From Nitrospirota bacterium (GTDB lineage Bacteria > Nitrospirota > Nitrospiria > Nitrospirales > Nitrospiraceae), in contig CAVPBK010000005.1 of the NCBI GenBank assembly GCA_963701855.1, forward strand, positions 160,001 to 224,000: a stretch of DNA of 64,000 nt, given 5' to 3'. Position numbers and translations under genes: made by a program. Of the stretch, positions 4,556-20,368 are shown piece by piece. Every line of letters starts with the position of its first letter. Positions within the stretch are counted from its first letter, which is position 1. Under the pieces are notes generated by a model. It was not told where the DNA came from and did no database searches. It was given only the letters and a program-made list of their open reading frames with translations.

Positions 4556-4592
4556 CCGGTGACCTCGGCAATAGACTTCTGAAGAGGCAAGA

Positions 4593-4820
4593 GAATACCC
4601 CTTTCGCCGAGAGAAATCACTCCGCCCGTTTGGGGAAGTTCTGAGTGATGAGTTCTGGGTTCTGAGTTGTCTGGTCCAGTACTGAGATGTAGGAGAAGGG
4701 CTGAGGGGGTCTGTCTGGTCTATCTTGTTTGTCTGGGTTGTTTCGTTCGTCTGGTTTGCCTTGTTGGCCGGACCGGAAACCCATCAGAGGAACCAAAGAA
4801 ACCAGATGGATAAGAGAGAC
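4593..4820. repeat. Direct repeat copy 1 (~220 bp; 7-mer tract plus 9-mer inverted array)
   Basis: Near-identical to the 5484 copy over the first ~165 bp (ccgcccgtttggggaagttctgagtgatga...gttcgtctggtttg). Confidence 0.9.
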
Positions 4821-5450: not shown

Positions 5451-5483
5451 CCTCACTTCTCCGAGTCCTTCGTTGCCGCCGCA

Positions 5484-5710
5484 GAATACCCCTTTCCCTT
5501 AGAGAAAGCACCCCGCCCGTTTGGGGAAGTTCTGAGTGATGATGTTCTGGGTTCTGAGTTGTCTGGTCCAGTACTGAGATGTAGGAGAAGGACTGAGGGG
5601 GTCTGTCTGGTCTATCTTGTTTGTCTGGGTTGTTTCGTTCGTCTGGTTTGTCTAGGTTATGACCCAAGGGAACCAGATAGACCAAAGAAATCAGATGAAC
5701 AAGTACGACG
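5484..5710. repeat. Direct repeat copy 2
   Basis: Matches the 4593 copy; period ~891 bp. Confidence 0.9.
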
Positions 5711-11145: not shown

Positions 11146-11222
<77 letters not shown>

Positions 11223-14354: not shown

Positions 14355-14693
14355 GTGCAGGATGGCCTAGCCGAATGGTTCTGGTACATTTTTAGGCTCC
14401 AAACTTGGTTACTCGGGTCAGGACACATCGGCGTCAACCGGGAACTACAAGAATCCGCCTGCGCGCGATACTACCTCGTGCGGGAACTTCGAAGCGGCCT
14501 GCCTGCCGAAAAAGTGGGACTCAAAGTCGGTGATAGAGTCGTTGCCTGTAATAGCGCGCTACTATCCAGCGTGTCTTCAGAGCGGGAGGCGAAACGACTC
14601 TGCTGGGGCGAAGGGGGCGGAGCGGAGGCCTGGGTTGTGAGCTCGTTGGTAGATGAGATCACGTTTGACTACCTTGTCCAACGGACCAATTGA
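14355..14693 (+). pseudogene. PDZ-domain remnant
   Basis: YLVRELRSGLPAEKVGLKVGDRVVACN; no convincing start or partner domain. Confidence 0.45.
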
Positions 14694-14717: not shown

Positions 14718-15591
14718 GTGATTGATCGCAATTTCAATGAGAGAGTTCAAGAACTGGCAATGGCCATGGACAATCTCGTTGATAGAAGTGCTCCTATCGA
14801 AATAAGAAGAATCGCAGGATGGCATGAATTTTTACTGGTTGCAGTTTTGGCAACTCGGACACTATATGGAACGATCACATATCTCTCGCGAGAATAAGGG
14901 CAGCAAAGATGACCTCATGCCAAAATTAGAATATGGGGTTGCATCGTCTCCGTTAGTACGATCACTTCTCGAGCTGGTATTTACGGTCATATTTATCCGA
15001 GAGCTGCCACGTACTCGCGTGAAATGGTTTCATCATTCTGGCTGGAGAGAATTGAGAGAGATGTTGGATTCTTTGCAGGGGAGGTATAGCTCAAAGCGTA
15101 AGTGGAAGACGAAACTTGTTCAGCTTGCCAATAGTGTTGAGCAGTTGCGCCTTAGCCTCCGAGTCTCAAAATGGACGGCGGGAGATCCAAAGTTCATCAA
15201 GTGGTGGCCGACAGCAATGCAGATGCTTGATCCAAAGAAAAACCATTTGAATAAACTCTCACGACGTTTCTTGGACTATTTCACCCTTCGGTATAGAACT
15301 TTATCTCAAGACCACCACTTGAGTGGTGCAGGACTTGTCAGAGTATATGCGAAGTTGCTTATCGATGAGAAGGATGCTCGCCGTGATCCCATTCTTAGGG
15401 ACTTAAAGAATAGTAATGTTATTCTGGCCCTATCAATTCTCCTTTCGATCTATACTGAAATTAACGATATATGCCGTTTCGATAGAGGGAGGGCGTTAGC
15501 CTACTGCTGGCGCATTTTGATGGAAGACAGGGATGAGGTTCGCGAGTTGTACAACCATCGTTATCGATCGATGCTTCGACGGGCAGCATAA
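14718..15591 (+). pseudogene. Frameshifted HEPN/DUF5677-like protein
   Basis: GAGGGGAG RBS and GTG 14718 give 59 aa to TAA 14897; continues in the +1 frame with RSLLE and YRTLSQDHH. Confidence 0.5.
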
Positions 15592-15609
15592 TACTCCGAG
15601 TGTATAGAG

Positions 15610-15815
15610 TTAGCTTATTAGTACCCCCGATAGGAGTTTCCCTGTATGCGACGCTTCCACTTTCGCCACTTGCTCGGGTCGGCCTTTTGCCACGATGTGT
15701 CCGCCTGCTGCGCCGCCTTCTGGGCCTAGGTCGATAATCCAATCTGCTGACTTGATGACGTCGAGGTTGTGTTCCACCACCACGGTGTTGCCGGTGTTCA
15801 CTAGTTTGTGCAGGA
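15610..15815 (-). pseudogene. Orphan uvrA 3'-end copy 3
   Basis: [39 protein letters not shown]...[14 protein letters not shown]. Confidence 0.9.
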
Positions 15816-15824
15816 CGGGGTCAT

Positions 15825-16259
15825 CTAGGGGGCTGCGACTTTGAGGCTCGGCACTTTGGTGGCGATACGCCGAAACTCCAACACGTTGCTTGTCACGACT
15901 GTGGCGCCGATTTCTCGTGCCGTGAGGGCAATGAGAACGTCGTTCATGGGGCCCAGACGGTCGGTCAATCCGGACGCATTCCCATATAGGGCTCGAAAAA
16001 TTTGTCCGGCATTGTCGAGGAGTGTTGGCGTAAGACCGAGGGTGCGTCCTGATCGGAATGCCTGATGGAGCCGGTCTACGGCCTTCTTGCGCTTAGGGGT
16101 ATCCGCGCCAAGCCGGAGTTCGAGCAGCGCCACAGCAGAGATGAATCGAACAACGGTACCTTGTCCGCCCAAGACCCATTCCGCATGCATCCCAGCGCGA
16201 AGAAAATCGATCAGGACATTGGTGTCGAGTAGGACCTTTCCGCCTACCGGTAAGGCCAT
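15825..16259 (-). CDS. PIN-domain (VapC-like) toxin
   Basis: [26 protein letters not shown]. Confidence 0.9.
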
Positions 16260-16447
16260 GGCCGCTCGTCGCCTTTCAAGACTCCCTTTAGGGGCCGCAA
16301 CGCCTTACTGAGTCGCTGCTCTTCGACGAGGAGCGACAGTGCCTTGTCGATCGCCTCCTGCTCAGAAACGACCCCAAAGTATCGCTTCGCAGCATTAATT
16401 TTGCGCTGGTCCAGCACGAGATGCTTGTGTTTGAGTGCGGCGCCCAT
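16244..16447 (-). CDS. Antitoxin (VapB-like)
   Basis: MGAALKHKHLVLDQRKI...SEQEAIDKAL; GGAGG RBS; overlaps the toxin start. Confidence 0.8.
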   Translation of the reverse strand: MGAALKHKHLVLDQRKINAAKRYFGVVSEQEAIDKALSLLVEEQRLSKALRPLKGVLKGDERPWPYR

Positions 16448-16534
16448 GGTGCCTCCATTATGTACAGGGCATGTACATACACTATATGCGATTATGGTCA
16501 GAAACGGCAAGAGTCCGCGCGTCGCTCAGAAGCT

Positions 16535-16806
16535 CTACTGAGCTTGTCCCGATAAGACCTTCGAGAGGAATCGTCCTATATGAGAAGCCGCTACTTTCGC
16601 TACTTGCTCCGGTCGTCCTTCTGCCACGATATGTCCGCCTGCTGCGCCGCCTTCTGGGCCTAGGTCGATAATCCAATCCGCTGACTTGATGACGTCGAGG
16701 TTGTGTTCCACCACCACCACGGTATTGCCGCTGTTTACCAGCTTCTGTAGCATCGCCAGGAGTTTCTTGATGTCTTCGACGTGCAGGCCGGTGGTCGTCG
16801 TCCATA
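16535..16806 (-). pseudogene. Orphan uvrA 3'-end copy 2
   Basis: From (MD)..[19 protein letters not shown] to [17 protein letters not shown]. Confidence 0.92.
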
Positions 16807-16825
16807 AGGCCTCTCGTCGGAATCA

Positions 16826-16860
16826 TTGATTCAAGTCAGACTGGTCTATATACTGGTCTG
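16826..16860 (+). promoter_or_regulatory. Sigma70 promoter with overlapping TA operator
   Basis: TTGATT-17 nt-TATACT; ACTGGTCT twice, the first within near-palindrome AGACTGGTCT. Confidence 0.65.
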
Positions 16861-16888
16861 CAATGAGTTTACATGGCTGGAGGACGGC

Positions 16889-17131
16889 ATGAAGATCGAG
16901 ATTGGCTCGTATGAGGCGAAAACAAAGCTCCCTGAATTGCTGCGGCAGGTAAAAGCCGGCAAAAGCTTTACCATTACAAATCGTGGGGAAGCCATTGCGG
17001 ATCTTGTGCCTAGCGCGGGCGTGAGGGCGAAGGACAAAGTTTCAGCAGTGGAAAAATTGAAGGCCTTCATGCTGGCCGATCCGGTGAGCAGTGCCAACAT
17101 CAAGGCACTCATCGAGGAGGGGCGTGCATGA
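16889..17131 (+). CDS. Phd/YefM-family antitoxin
   Basis: IGSYEAKTKLPELLRQV..G....ITNRGEAIADLVP. Confidence 0.92.
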   Translation: MKIEIGSYEAKTKLPELLRQVKAGKSFTITNRGEAIADLVPSAGVRAKDKVSAVEKLKAFMLADPVSSANIKALIEEGRA

Positions 17132-17547
17132 GCTTCGTCCTTGATAACTCGGTGACCATGCGTTGGTTTTTTGGTGATGGCAAGCCACAAGAACTTGCCT
17201 ATGCAGGTAAAGTGCTCGATGCGATGCAAGATGCCAAAGCGCTTGTACCTATGACCTGGGGCCTAGAAGTGGCCAACGTCATCGCCAAGGCGGAAGAAAA
17301 AGCCTTGGTGACAGAAGCTCGGAGCGGGGCATTTCTTGAGATGCTGGAAGGTGTAGATATTGAGGTGGATGCAGCCACATTCGCACACGTGCTATCTGAT
17401 ACCCTTCAACTGGCGCGGCGATACAAGCTATCCGCTTACGATGCTTCTTATCTCGAACTGGCCTTACGACTAGGCATACCTTTGGCCACGCTCGACGAAG
17501 ATTTGCAGAAAGCTGCAAAGAAAGCAGGCGTGAAAAGGTTTGCGTGA
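17128..17547 (+). CDS. VapC PIN toxin
   Basis: FVLDNSV, EVANV, LSAYDASYLELA, LATLD; ATGA overlap. Confidence 0.92.
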   Translation: MSFVLDNSVTMRWFFGDGKPQELAYAGKVLDAMQDAKALVPMTWGLEVANVIAKAEEKALVTEARSGAFLEMLEGVDIEVDAATFAHVLSDTLQLARRYKLSAYDASYLELALRLGIPLATLDEDLQKAAKKAGVKRFA

Positions 17548-17560
17548 AGAAGCATCGGTG

Positions 17561-20368
17561 TCAGGAACCATTGTTGTCAGTAGCTGGCATGAGCGCATCC
17601 GCTAGGAATCGTCCCGTGTAAGAAGCTGCCACTTTTGCCACTTGCTCCGGTCGGCCTTCTGCCACGATGTGTCCGCCTGCCGCGCCGCCTTCTGGGCCTA
17701 GGTCGATAATCCAATCGGCGCACTTGATGACGTCGAGATTGTGTTCCACCACCACTACGGTATTCCCGCTGTTCACTAACTTCTGCAGCATGGCCAGGAG
17801 TTTCTTGATGTCCTCGACGTGCAGCCCGGTGGTCGGTTCGTCCATGATGTAGAGCACGTTCTTCGCGGATGAATCTCTAAGTTCGGCTGCAATCTTTAAC
17901 CGTTGGGCCTCGCCGCCCGAGAGGGTCGTTGCGGATTGGCCGAGCCTGAGATAGCCGAGCCCGATGGTCGAGAGAAGGTGGAGCTTTTCAGTGAGCTTGG
18001 GTGAGCCGCTAAAAAACCCCAGCGCTTCTTCCGCCGTCATCTGCAACACATCATGGATCGTTTTCCCGCGATAGCGGATGGAGAGAACATCCGGTTTGAA
18101 TCGCTTTCCGTCACAGGCTTCGCAGGTGGCATATATGTCTTCGAAAAAATACATTTCCAGCTTTTCGACGCCGCTCCCTTCGCATCGGTCGCACCGGCCC
18201 CCGGTGGTATTGAAGGAGAAATGGCCTGGTGTGAGCCCGCGTCGGAGCGCATCGCGCTCAGAGGCGAAGAGCGTGCGAACTTCATCGAACGCTTTCAGGT
18301 AAGTGATCGGATTCGAGCGTGGCGTTCGGCCGATCGGTTCCTGATCGATGAGCTTAATGCCGGTGAGATGTTCAATTCCTTTAATCGCGCGAAATTTTCC
18401 CATCGGCAGCGACTCGACACGAAAGGCGCGGGCGAGGGCTCGGTAGAGTGTGTCTTCAACCAATGTGCTCTTGCCGGACCCTGAAACGCCGGTAATACAG
18501 ATCAACATGCCGAGCGGAATACGGACACACAGATCTTTGAGATTGTGTTCGCAGGCGCCGGCTATGACAAGAAATTTTCCGCTTCCTCTGCGCCGAGACC
18601 TGGGCGTTGAAATTTCATCTTCGCCGCGCAGGTAGCGGGCTGTGATCGAGCGCCGGTCTGCAATGAATTCTTGTTGTGGCGCTGCGCAGATTACTTCACC
18701 GCCTTTCTCGCCCGACAAGGGGCCCAGTTCGACAAGATAGTCGGCTGCCTGCATCATCTGGCGGTCGTGTTCGACGACAATCACCGTGTTGCCCTGGACT
18801 GCCAGCTCTCGCAGAATGCCGGCGAGCGTCGCGGTGTCACGCGGGTGGAGACCGATGGTCGGTTCGTCGAGGACATAGAGCGTGCCGACTAGGCGGGCGC
18901 CGAGTTGATTGGCCAAGGTTGCCCGTTGGGCTTCTCCGCCCGACAGCGTGCGGGTCTGGCGGGAGAGGGTGAGATAGCTGAGGCCCACGCGGAGGAGAAA
19001 GCCAAGCTTGGCCGTCAGTTGTCGGAGAATGTCGCGGGCGACCTGTTCCTCATAGGGAGAGAGGGAGAGAGATGTGATCCAAGCAGCAGCCTCTTCTATC
19101 GTAAGTGTAGACAGCTCATGAATATCTGTGCCCGCAATCTTCACGTAGCGGGCATCCGGTCGGAGTCGAGTCCCCTCACATGTTGGGCAGGGAACCGGTG
19201 TCCGGTAGCGGCTGAGCATCACGCGCACATGCAACTTGTAGCGCTTCCCTTCCAAGTATTCGAAAAATTGCCGCACGCCCTCCATCTTGCCTTCTCCCTG
19301 CCAGAGCATCTGCTGGACAGGCTGTGGCAGGCCCTTGTAGGGGGTGCTGAGGTCGATCCCACGCCGTTTCATGGAGAGCAACATTTGCTTCTGCCACCAA
19401 TCGCCGCTGGGCTTGCTCCAAGGTTCAATCGCGCCTTGGGCAAGTGACTTGCTGTGGTCGGGAATGACGAGGTCGGGATCGTAACGGAGAATATTGCCGA
19501 ATCCTTTGCATTCCGGGCAGGCGCCGAGCGGATGGTTGAAGGAAAAGAGGACCGGGCGAATCGGTTCGAACGTTCGGCCACATTGTTGGCAGCGAAAGTT
19601 TGTGCTGTAGGTTCGGAGGCTCTGGTCGATAACCTCCACGCGGCACAAACCCTCGCCCTCGTGGAATGCGGTTTCGATTGCTTCGACGAGACGAGATCGG
19701 TTGTCTTCTCGGATCACCAGCCGATCGAGAATCACATGAAGATGATCTGGCCTGGTTTTGGGAAGAGTGTGAGTCTCATGGAGATCGAGGATTTCTTCGC
19801 CGCACTGCACTCTGGTGAACCCGCGTAGCAACAGCGATTGGAGGAAAGCTTGATCTTGTTTCGGCGTTGGCGCTGCGACAGGAAAGAGGATCATTGCCCG
19901 TGCATCGCCGCAATGGTTCAGGAGATCATCGGCAACACTGCCGGGGTGAAAGCTGCGCGCAGCGACGGCGCAATCTGGGCAGACCGGGTGGCCCACTTTG
20001 GCGAACAGAAGTCTTAGAAGGTCGGCGATTTCAGTCGTGGTTCCAACTGTTGAGCGGGCGGTGCGGATGGGGTTCTTCTGCTCGATCGCAATGGCGGGGC
20101 GGACGTTAATCAGCCGGTCGACATCGGGTCGATTGACCTTATCGAGAAACATGCGTGCATAGGTGGAGAGCGATTCCACATAGCGCCATTGGCCTTCGGC
20201 GAACAGCGTGTCGAACGCGAGCGAGGATTTTCCCGATCCTGATACGCCTGTGATTGCTGTAACCTGATTGTGCGGAATGCGGAGCGAAATATTCTTCAGA
20301 TTGTTCTGCCGCGCACCTTCGACGATGAGGTTTGCAGACTGGTTCTGAGGCAGAGGGGTGGATTCCAC
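17561..20368 (-). CDS. uvrA: Excinuclease ABC subunit A
   Basis: Two ABC modules (GVSGSGKS twice, LSGGEAQR twice, DEPT) and zinc fingers. Confidence 0.97.
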   Translation of the reverse strand: MESTPLPQNQSANLIVEGARQNNLKNISLRIPHNQVTAITGVSGSGKSSLAFDTLFAEGQWRYVESLSTYARMFLDKVNRPDVDRLINVRPAIAIEQKNPIRTARSTVGTTTEIADLLRLLFAKVGHPVCPDCAVAARSFHPGSVADDLLNHCGDARAMILFPVAAPTPKQDQAFLQSLLLRGFTRVQCGEEILDLHETHTLPKTRPDHLHVILDRLVIREDNRSRLVEAIETAFHEGEGLCRVEVIDQSLRTYSTNFRCQQCGRTFEPIRPVLFSFNHPLGACPECKGFGNILRYDPDLVIPDHSKSLAQGAIEPWSKPSGDWWQKQMLLSMKRRGIDLSTPYKGLPQPVQQMLWQGEGKMEGVRQFFEYLEGKRYKLHVRVMLSRYRTPVPCPTCEGTRLRPDARYVKIAGTDIHELSTLTIEEAAAWITSLSLSPYEEQVARDILRQLTAKLGFLLRVGLSYLTLSRQTRTLSGGEAQRATLANQLGARLVGTLYVLDEPTIGLHPRDTATLAGILRELAVQGNTVIVVEHDRQMMQAADYLVELGPLSGEKGGEVICAAPQQEFIADRRSITARYLRGEDEISTPRSRRRGSGKFLVIAGACEHNLKDLCVRIPLGMLICITGVSGSGKSTLVEDTLYRALARAFRVESLPMGKFRAIKGIEHLTGIKLIDQEPIGRTPRSNPITYLKAFDEVRTLFASERDALRRGLTPGHFSFNTTGGRCDRCEGSGVEKLEMYFFEDIYATCEACDGKRFKPDVLSIRYRGKTIHDVLQMTAEEALGFFSGSPKLTEKLHLLSTIGLGYLRLGQSATTLSGGEAQRLKIAAELRDSSAKNVLYIMDEPTTGLHVEDIKKLLAMLQKLVNSGNTVVVVEHNLDVIKCADWIIDLGPEGGAAGGHIVAEGRPEQVAKVAASYTGRFLADALMPATDNNGS

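Follow-up and report, generated by a model that had tools for sequence, protein, structure and literature searches.

The window analysed here, a 64,000-nucleotide (nt) stretch of a Nitrospirota genome (contig CAVPBK010000005.1, positions 160,001 to 224,000 of the forward strand), carries an array of three diverged 3' ends of uvrA that divide small cassettes, among them putative toxin-antitoxin (TA) pairs, and arrays of this kind recur behind uvrA in other Nitrospira genomes. We propose that the uvrA 3' end is a cassette slot that operates without a recombinase of its own, homologous recombination using the repeated uvrA ends as arms, and we put the probability of this reading at about one half. 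The general kind of arrangement, arrays formed by displacement of gene ends, is already known.

Serial uvrA ends behind a complete uvrA gene

The locus lies on contig C5 of a 4.3-Mb, 15-contig Nitrospira metagenome assembly (G000), which holds two full-length uvrA genes; the second, on contig C6, is ~65% identical in the C-terminal part. Read outward from the first uvrA gene, the features of the locus in window coordinates are as follows.

17561-20368, minus strand: uvrA, 935 aa (TIGR00630, 1108.7 bits, cut-off 729.8; Pfam UvrA_inter and UvrA_DNA-bind)
17561-17845, minus strand: repeat copy 1, the last ~95 codons of uvrA, tail ...FLADALMPATDNNGS
17128-17547, plus strand: PIN-domain toxin PIN139, 139 aa, cassette A (PF01850, 40.2 bits, cut-off 23.6)
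16826-17131, plus strand: Phd/YefM-like antitoxin, cassette A (PF02604, 23.6 bits, under the cut-off of 29.8)
~16535-16806, minus strand: orphan uvrA 3' end, copy 2 (BLAST, 89% over 240 nt against the gene end)
16244-16447, minus strand: VapB-like antitoxin, 67 aa from ATG, cassette C (PF09957, 20.0 bits, under the cut-off of 23.4)
15825-16259, minus strand: PIN-domain toxin PIN144, 144 aa, cassette C (PF01850, 42.2 bits, cut-off 23.6)
~15610-15813, minus strand: orphan uvrA 3' end, copy 3, tail ...LLSGVLIS (BLAST, 85% over 187 nt)
14824-15591, plus strand: DUF5677-like gene, 255 aa, cargo tied to tail 3 (PF18928, 24.0 bits, under the cut-off of 27.1)
14355-14693, plus strand: PDZ lipoprotein remnant, the C-terminal PDZ part, 112 aa (weak PDZ matches)

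A preliminary description of this DNA had drawn the locus as serial uvrA ends with TA cargo between them. This layout is borne out by the open reading frames (ORFs), by BLAST and by the repeat finder, which returned a single three-copy family at the locus, direct repeats ~1 kb apart, and the three tails and stops that it quoted are exact in the sequence. PIN139 is convergent with uvrA, with 13 nt between the two stops, and the ORF of its Phd-like antitoxin overlaps the toxin start by 4 nt; an internal MKIEIG... is probably the true start of this antitoxin, so that the gene would be shorter than the ORF. The VapB-like antitoxin likewise overlaps the start of PIN144. By gene order and toxin family, cassettes A and C are putative type II TA modules (VapBC-like and Phd/PIN), and one of the PIN toxins gives a weak match to a model of tRNA-cleaving VapC. 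None of the five cargo proteins of the window had a PADLOC match. The gene at the far end of the array had been called HEPN-like, a label that we dropped: no HEPN profile matched it and Pfam gives DUF5677 alone, below the cut-off. The Atlas neighbours of its product are DUF5677-type clusters, and an RTLSQDH stretch in the translation fits Rx4-6H.

The three ends differ mainly at synonymous positions

Alignment of the three copies revealed a 35-nt block that is identical in all of them, a length that suffices for RecA-type exchange. Two nucleotides are deleted near the 5' edge of copy 2, which is out of frame with anything upstream, while copy 3 has a 3-nt deletion and begins later in the gene (VLHKLVN...). 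The pairwise differences, with the ratio of nonsynonymous to synonymous divergence (dN/dS), are as follows.

Copies 1 and 2: 21.5 synonymous differences, 4.5 nonsynonymous, dN/dS 0.053
Copies 1 and 3: 16 synonymous differences, 11 nonsynonymous, dN/dS 0.19
Copies 2 and 3: 17 synonymous differences, 9 nonsynonymous, dN/dS 0.14

The synonymous divergence (dS) is 0.44-0.50 in all three pairs. The copies thus do differ mainly at synonymous positions, as had been stated (dN/dS 0.05-0.19), and since dN/dS is low at a dS of ~0.5, they appear to have diverged under purifying selection, in functional uvrA genes of different lineages. The low dN/dS at dS ~0.45-0.5 fits the earlier suggestion that each copy was once a functional uvrA terminus. 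To judge by these counts, a duplicate decaying in place would not account for the divergence. The tails start right after a conserved FLxxxL motif, near the natural UvrA end, and consist of 7-14 unconserved residues. They are read-through beyond the natural end of UvrA and not alternative functional termini.

Arrays recur at the uvrA end of other Nitrospira genomes

A DNA search of 85 Nitrospira genomes with the uvrA end gave a match in 81, and in 16 of the 85 at least two hits lay on the same strand no more than 5 kb apart (G000, G004, G008, G009, G017, G023, G044, G047, G055, G065, G078, G084, G086, G094, G098 and G099), some of these arrays lying on contigs longer than 500 kb. The count of 16 is a lower bound, as many assemblies break at the repeat (the contigs of G069, for example, end inside it). 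The other three families of the order, sampled with 16 genomes, yielded no orphan uvrA end.

The usual order in relatives is uvrA, a convergent CsgG/PDZ lipoprotein gene, AlgH and CN-hydrolase, and in five genomes the uvrA and convergent PDZ ORFs overlap by 6 nt. This lipoprotein gene, which abuts uvrA in most relatives, is the parent of the PDZ remnant in the window (76-86% identity to the 3' part of the relatives' genes). Elsewhere the slot holds Phd/PIN139 (cassette A), Phd/ParE (cassette B), VapB-like/PIN144 (cassette C) or nothing; further occupants are an AAA_14/DUF4143 ATPase that matches the PADLOC candidate PDC-S01 at 1.7e-53, a DUF2442/DUF4160 plus DUF2779 set, a DUF4382 gene and a 1428-aa gene. 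Different cassettes at one syntenic site are the cargo variation that had been expected behind uvrA in relatives. The site had also been described as a hotspot for TA and defence genes; TA pairs are indeed present, but the cargo is not solely of these kinds, for DUF485 and solute symporter genes stand at the other uvrA.

An in-frame insertion of ~100 nt, rich in palindromic GGGACTGTCCC-type motifs, lies inside uvrA of eight relatives (loci L037, L049, L047, L074, L078, L070, L069 and L067), just upstream of the VLYIMDEP codons, with the signature motif region on one side and Walker B on the other. The insertion, which the uvrA of the window lacks near 17850, resembles a small hairpin repeat that a surface loop can accommodate.

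Cassettes behave as units of uvrA end and cargo

The unit of the array consists of the last ~60-180 codons of uvrA, a few read-through codons and the cargo. Immediately to the left of an orphan, each cassette type has its own sequence, which recurs across genomes: the A junction is common to G000, G008, G017, G044 and G078, and the B junction to G023, G044, G055, G084 and G098. PIN139 also stands behind uvrA in G004 and G094, and cassette C is present in G000, G009 and G086. The order of cassettes varies, being B-A in G044, A-B in G078 and A-C in G000.

One check that had been suggested was to look for an intact uvrA that ends with tail 2 and is followed by the same cargo. Such genes were found in G009 and G086, where VapB-like/PIN144 and then an orphan follow; in G086 the intact gene ends ...FLSKVL..., with PIN144 behind it. 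The stretch of copy 2, cargo C and copy 3 in G000 aligns end to end with the intact uvrA end, cargo and orphan of G009 at 92.7% identity, and tail 3 with its downstream flank and the DUF5677 gene recurs behind a truncated orphan in G099. Of the displacement model put forward earlier, the unit of uvrA end, tail and cargo stands, whereas the tails as functional ends do not, being read-through.

Cargo C of G000 and G009 is 96.4% identical (90-100% in 60-nt windows), compared with 80-93% for the uvrA ends around it, 91.3% for the uvrA body and 87.6% for the shared downstream region. Since the identity of the cargo lies above that of its surroundings, the cargo was probably exchanged more recently, with breakpoints at or in the repeats. 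Two histories fit the G000 and G009 loci alike: cassette A was inserted into a G009-like array, or it was deleted from a G000-like array. The closest relatives by uvrA body (G015 and G046) have neither cassette A nor cassette C.

Copies within a genome are partly homogenised and distal copies decay

We ranked 10 orphans, for which the intact gene of the same genome was available, against 37 intact uvrA ends. The own genome's end came first or second for 7 of the 10 and 7th, 11th and 26th for the rest. In G044 the gene and the first orphan are 94.7% identical 3' of the core and 77.5% identical 5' of it. Copies within a genome are thus partly homogenised (concerted evolution by gene conversion), and both the conversion tracts of G044 and the ranking agree with the earlier proposal that the copies recombine with one another.

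Frameshifts, stops or internal replacements are common among the orphans. Where an array has two orphans, the distal one has decayed further (4/4 arrays: G000, G044, G078, and G065 at the other uvrA), which fits the suggestion that the newest unit adjoins uvrA. Orphan starts range from ~71 to 309 of the query, with traces still further upstream in one case, and the common A junction at 216 is a deletion derivative of longer orphans in G004 and G094. A recombination core at the nucleotide level in the uvrA end was considered and rejected: synonymous variability in the conserved DWIIDLGPE core, taken as entropy over codons 44-52, is not lower than elsewhere. A class-D insert, a replacement of ~110 nt in the orphans of G047, G055, G065 and G084, was considered as a dispersed repeat and rejected, since it is not dispersed in G000; it is one inherited event.

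Contigs of four studies support the junctions

Misassembly had been named as a concern. All cargo/orphan junctions are covered by public contigs (four runs, each from a different study), most of them at 99% identity or more, which together with the recurrence in 16 genomes speaks against it. Copy 3 is spanned whole by two contigs (run X2 record 11 and run X4 record 27). Copy 2 is reached from either side and spanned by no single contig, because assemblies break in the identical core; the order of the units therefore rests on the original assembly, while the junctions do not. Excision or variant joints were looked for in the public contigs (assembled sequence, no raw reads); the two candidates listed have 20-22 nt on the shorter side and extra letters between, a pattern against which the tool warns. 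Separately, a contig of run X2 is 12 nt shorter at window position 15701, inside copy 3, an in-frame length variant from another sample.

No recombinase gene was found at the array loci

No integrase, resolvase or transposase family was matched among the 166 ORFs scanned across the loci. G000 has 22 tyrosine-recombinase matches (PF00589) and two serine-recombinase matches (PF00239); none of these is on contig C5, so that the earlier statement that no recombinase is nearby holds for the whole contig of the window. The cargo ORFs gave no match to the LAGLIDADG, GIY-YIG or HNH families. Orphans away from uvrA were considered as integrase-bearing elements and rejected: the G069 contigs break in the repeat, the orphan at G049:C190 is decayed, and no integrase was found.

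A proposed route for cassettes without a recombinase, and its rivals

We suggest that an array would be founded when DNA of a relative, carrying a uvrA end with cargo, pairs with the resident uvrA on one side only and an illegitimate join closes the other side at a short distance, still within the end of the resident gene. The gene would then be completed by the incoming end, and the resident end would persist beyond the cargo as an orphan, starting at an arbitrary point. Such an event corresponds to homology-facilitated illegitimate recombination (PMC3240628). Because the uvrA and lipoprotein genes overlap and leave no spacer, insertions that keep both genes whole would tend to duplicate ends. 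To spread, a donor arrangement of uvrA, cargo and orphan would offer two arms, both matching the single uvrA end of a recipient; a double crossover would insert the unit, the donor end completing uvrA and a hybrid orphan carrying the recipient's tail. The same arms would allow insertion into any copy of an array, stacking, swaps of cargo between genomes, and deletion. TA cargo may be over-represented since repeat-to-repeat deletion of a TA pair would harm the cell, by analogy with the TA cassettes of integrons. More tentatively, the duplicated 3' end of a conserved gene may be a general, portable homology arm for the capture and stacking of genes without a recombinase, so that the recombination machinery of any relative could insert, reorder or delete cassettes, with TA pairs holding the arrays in place and the two uvrA paralogues as one instance; we consider this wider claim less likely than not.

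Several results weigh against a recombinase-free slot. Neither a founding event nor a donor-recipient pair was seen, and no microhomology was shown at the junctions. In a tree of 49 uvrA ends, 22 of the 46 inner branches remained open and there were two small cassette-linked groups; we dropped the tree as a means of placing donors because too few branches were resolved. The identity of cassette A between G000 and G008, G044, G078 and G094 (84.8, 83.2, 81.8 and 89.4%) tracks that of the uvrA body (85.0, 85.8, 85.2 and 89.4%), which suggests that A may be ancient and for the most part inherited. A search of G000, which is 97% complete, found no ComEC (PF03772), and natural transformation is therefore doubtful; DprA is detectable. 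The starts of orphans of cassette types A, B and E fall within ~16 nt of one another (216-232), the presence of arrays at both uvrA paralogues could mean sequence-specific targeting, and the slot also holds larger islands with a DnaG-like primase, a WYL regulator and an AAA ATPase as well as, behind the G023 orphan, a 198-aa HTH_17 protein of excisionase-type fold. These islands and the HTH_17 protein look like remains of mobile elements.

The last three of these observations are what one would expect if the cassettes were integrase-less elements, resembling cis-mobilizable elements (CIMEs), or relics of such elements, served by a tyrosine or serine recombinase that is encoded elsewhere or lost, with a core in the uvrA 3' coding sequence and growth by accretion. 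The architecture is the classic one, in which the incoming end completes the gene and the old end is displaced, as modelled by e14 with icd/icdC, and the 22 PF00589 matches elsewhere in G000 would offer candidates for the enzyme. We nevertheless consider this account rather unlikely, given that no recombinase was found in the 166 ORFs or on the contig of the window, that outside this cluster the orphan starts are widely scattered and the common A junction arose by a secondary deletion, that the synonymous variability of the core gives no sign of a site at the nucleotide level, and that gene-conversion tracts vary in extent. An old and mainly vertical array, whose differences arose through repeat deletions and gene conversion while cassettes moved horizontally rarely or not at all, would explain the closeness of the cassette A identity to that of the uvrA body, the resemblance of orphans to the gene of their own genome, and a G009-type locus, which can be read as a G000-type locus after deletion between copies 1 and 2. 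Yet cargo C stands at 96.4% beside 91.3% for the uvrA body and 87.6% downstream, the cassette order differs between G044 and G078, the nearest relatives by uvrA body carry neither cassette, and copy 2 is nearly free of nonsynonymous change at a dS of 0.5, for which an old orphan would need continual conversion. We regard a mainly vertical history as unlikely.

A homing-type nuclease that cuts cassette-free uvrA ends, with repair copying in a unit that carries a cut-resistant replacement end, would be far less probable still. Mobile endonuclease ORFs of fungal mitochondria do produce a replacement end plus a displaced end, the outcome seen here, and cassettes A and C encode PIN-domain nucleases. 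These are, however, VapC-type PIN toxins with antitoxins, one of them weakly matching the tRNA-cleaving VapC, other cassettes carry ParE, an MNT/HEPN pair or no nuclease, and the cargo ORFs lack the homing families named above. As for the notion that the uvrA end was duplicated in tandem in place and later filled with cargo, or that the array is an artefact of assembling mixed strains, direct repeats ~1 kb apart in a metagenome assembly invite it, and it is largely refuted: neutral decay would give a dN/dS of ~0.5 or higher, not 0.05-0.19, the junctions are present in contigs of four studies, and the structure is found in 16 genomes, in part on contigs of more than 500 kb.

Relation to known systems

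Among described cases, e14 at icd of Escherichia coli comes closest. According to PMC13626634, e14 (and phage 21) supplies a replacement 3' end, the original C-terminal fragment (icdC) stays at the far side, the differences between the two ends are mainly synonymous, and recombination between them removes the insert and makes a chimeric gene. Similarly, uvrA is completed by the end of an insert and the displaced 3' end stands in direct orientation. In contrast, e14 is a prophage of 15 kb that brings its own integrase and inserts at a fixed attachment site, whereas the uvrA units are TA pairs of ~0.7-1 kb with no integrase found, variable ends of homology and up to three stacked copies. Serial direct repeats of a target-gene 3' end also divide cargo in accretion arrays and CIMEs and in the ssrA islands of Dehalococcoides, some of the cargo blocks lacking an integrase of their own (PMC5704250 and PMC3146451); these arrays have a known site-specific integrase and a short fixed core, neither of which was found at uvrA.

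Minimal mobile elements (MMEs) of Neisseria, as outlined in PMC1797815, are alternative small cassettes at one syntenic site between conserved genes, with no recombinase and with restriction-modification cargo. The cassettes of the uvrA slot resemble them in occupying one syntenic site without a transposase, integrase or terminal repeats of their own, the sole repeats being the uvrA ends. Movement of MMEs by homologous recombination in the flanks was reportedly proposed by Saunders and Snyder in 2002. Duplicated gene ends or stacking are not known from MMEs, which occupy single slots. Neisseria is, moreover, naturally competent, whereas no ComEC was found in G000. Chromosomal integrons also line up small cassettes in order, and their TA cassettes affect how stable the array is (PMC13108822). 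They use IntI and attC, whereas the repeats of the uvrA array are pieces of a housekeeping gene and the contig lacks PF00589 matches, although the comparison did not include an attC model. Orphan arrays of polymorphic toxins also place displaced 3' gene ends behind a full gene, but those orphans encode alternative toxin domains together with immunity genes, while the uvrA orphans are decaying ends of an ABC ATPase with short tails.

The preliminary description knew of no account of such an array at uvrA, and in a search that left out most subscription journals we found no relevant literature on uvrA as an insertion site or array in Nitrospira. Accessory-gene hotspots without an integrase are widely observed, their entry route being mostly inferred. 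At uvrA each gain seems to leave a dated scar in the form of a displaced gene end, so that one locus would record the order of acquisition, how far conversion reached and how cassettes were swapped among species. Should the slot indeed work without a recombinase, it would provide a concrete route by which small TA and defence genes pass between related bacteria, by homologous recombination on a duplicated gene end as arm, and would explain why such cargo dominates the arrays. For annotation, the last codons of Nitrospira uvrA should be treated as mosaic and short 'UvrA-like' ORFs downstream as dead fragments.

The other uvrA paralogue and other duplicated gene ends

At the other uvrA, G065:C98 (L071 245-3942) has the order uvrA, DUF485, solute symporter, orphan, MNT/HEPN pair and orphan, in which DUF485 and the solute symporter form a unit. 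In G004:C179 (L056 19158-19328) an orphan of this paralogue lies at the contig end, beside a HerA-like gene. Behind the second uvrA of G000 (L060, C6:921000-941000) we observed a 184-aa gene, an 836-aa HerA-like ATPase that matches PADLOC mad8 at 1.1e-11, and a patatin-like phospholipase, a defence-like island.

G000 has a fourth orphan, missed by the preliminary description, at C4:294271-294548 (L058 10272-10565). It has a squalene/phytoene synthase gene on one side and on the other an island (Lcl_C, REase-ARP, SurE-like, WYL) that is followed downstream by the full block of PDZ, AlgH and CN-hydrolase, and it retains ~45 nt of the junction of the ParE cassette. The reciprocal arrangement, SQS_PSY, DUF4382 and a decayed orphan followed by the genes that come after uvrA in G000, is present in G049:C190 (L169 6562-6726), and the two together point to a chromosomal rearrangement at the level of lineages with a breakpoint inside the array.

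A self-comparison of G000 for duplicates of gene 3' ends revealed a few other cases. A porin, a sigma-54 activator and a chemoreceptor each have a copy of their end 1-3 kb away (C9:349312-349569/350411-350667, L162; C6:102195-102370/105207-105373, L164; C9:88030-88240/90588-90798, L161). The beta-barrel porin has an end copy of 94% identity with a 156-aa unknown ORF between, and OmpA-like and TPR/PilZ genes stand between the end of the sigma-54 activator and its copy. A two-partner-secretion (TPS) domain protein of 1128 aa (G000:C9:54000-66500, L163) has an AF2212-like/PIN pair directly behind its gene, and 578 nt of the gene end recur 6.5 kb downstream, an ordinary polymorphic-toxin orphan locus.

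Elsewhere in the window, a tRNA-Pro(CGG) gene lies at 11146-11222, 3 kb past the array, and no repeat of the tRNA 3' end was seen nearby. A direct repeat of ~225 nt with 87% identity occupies 4592-4814 and 5483-5703, 891 nt apart, one copy lying at the start of a 598-aa open frame.

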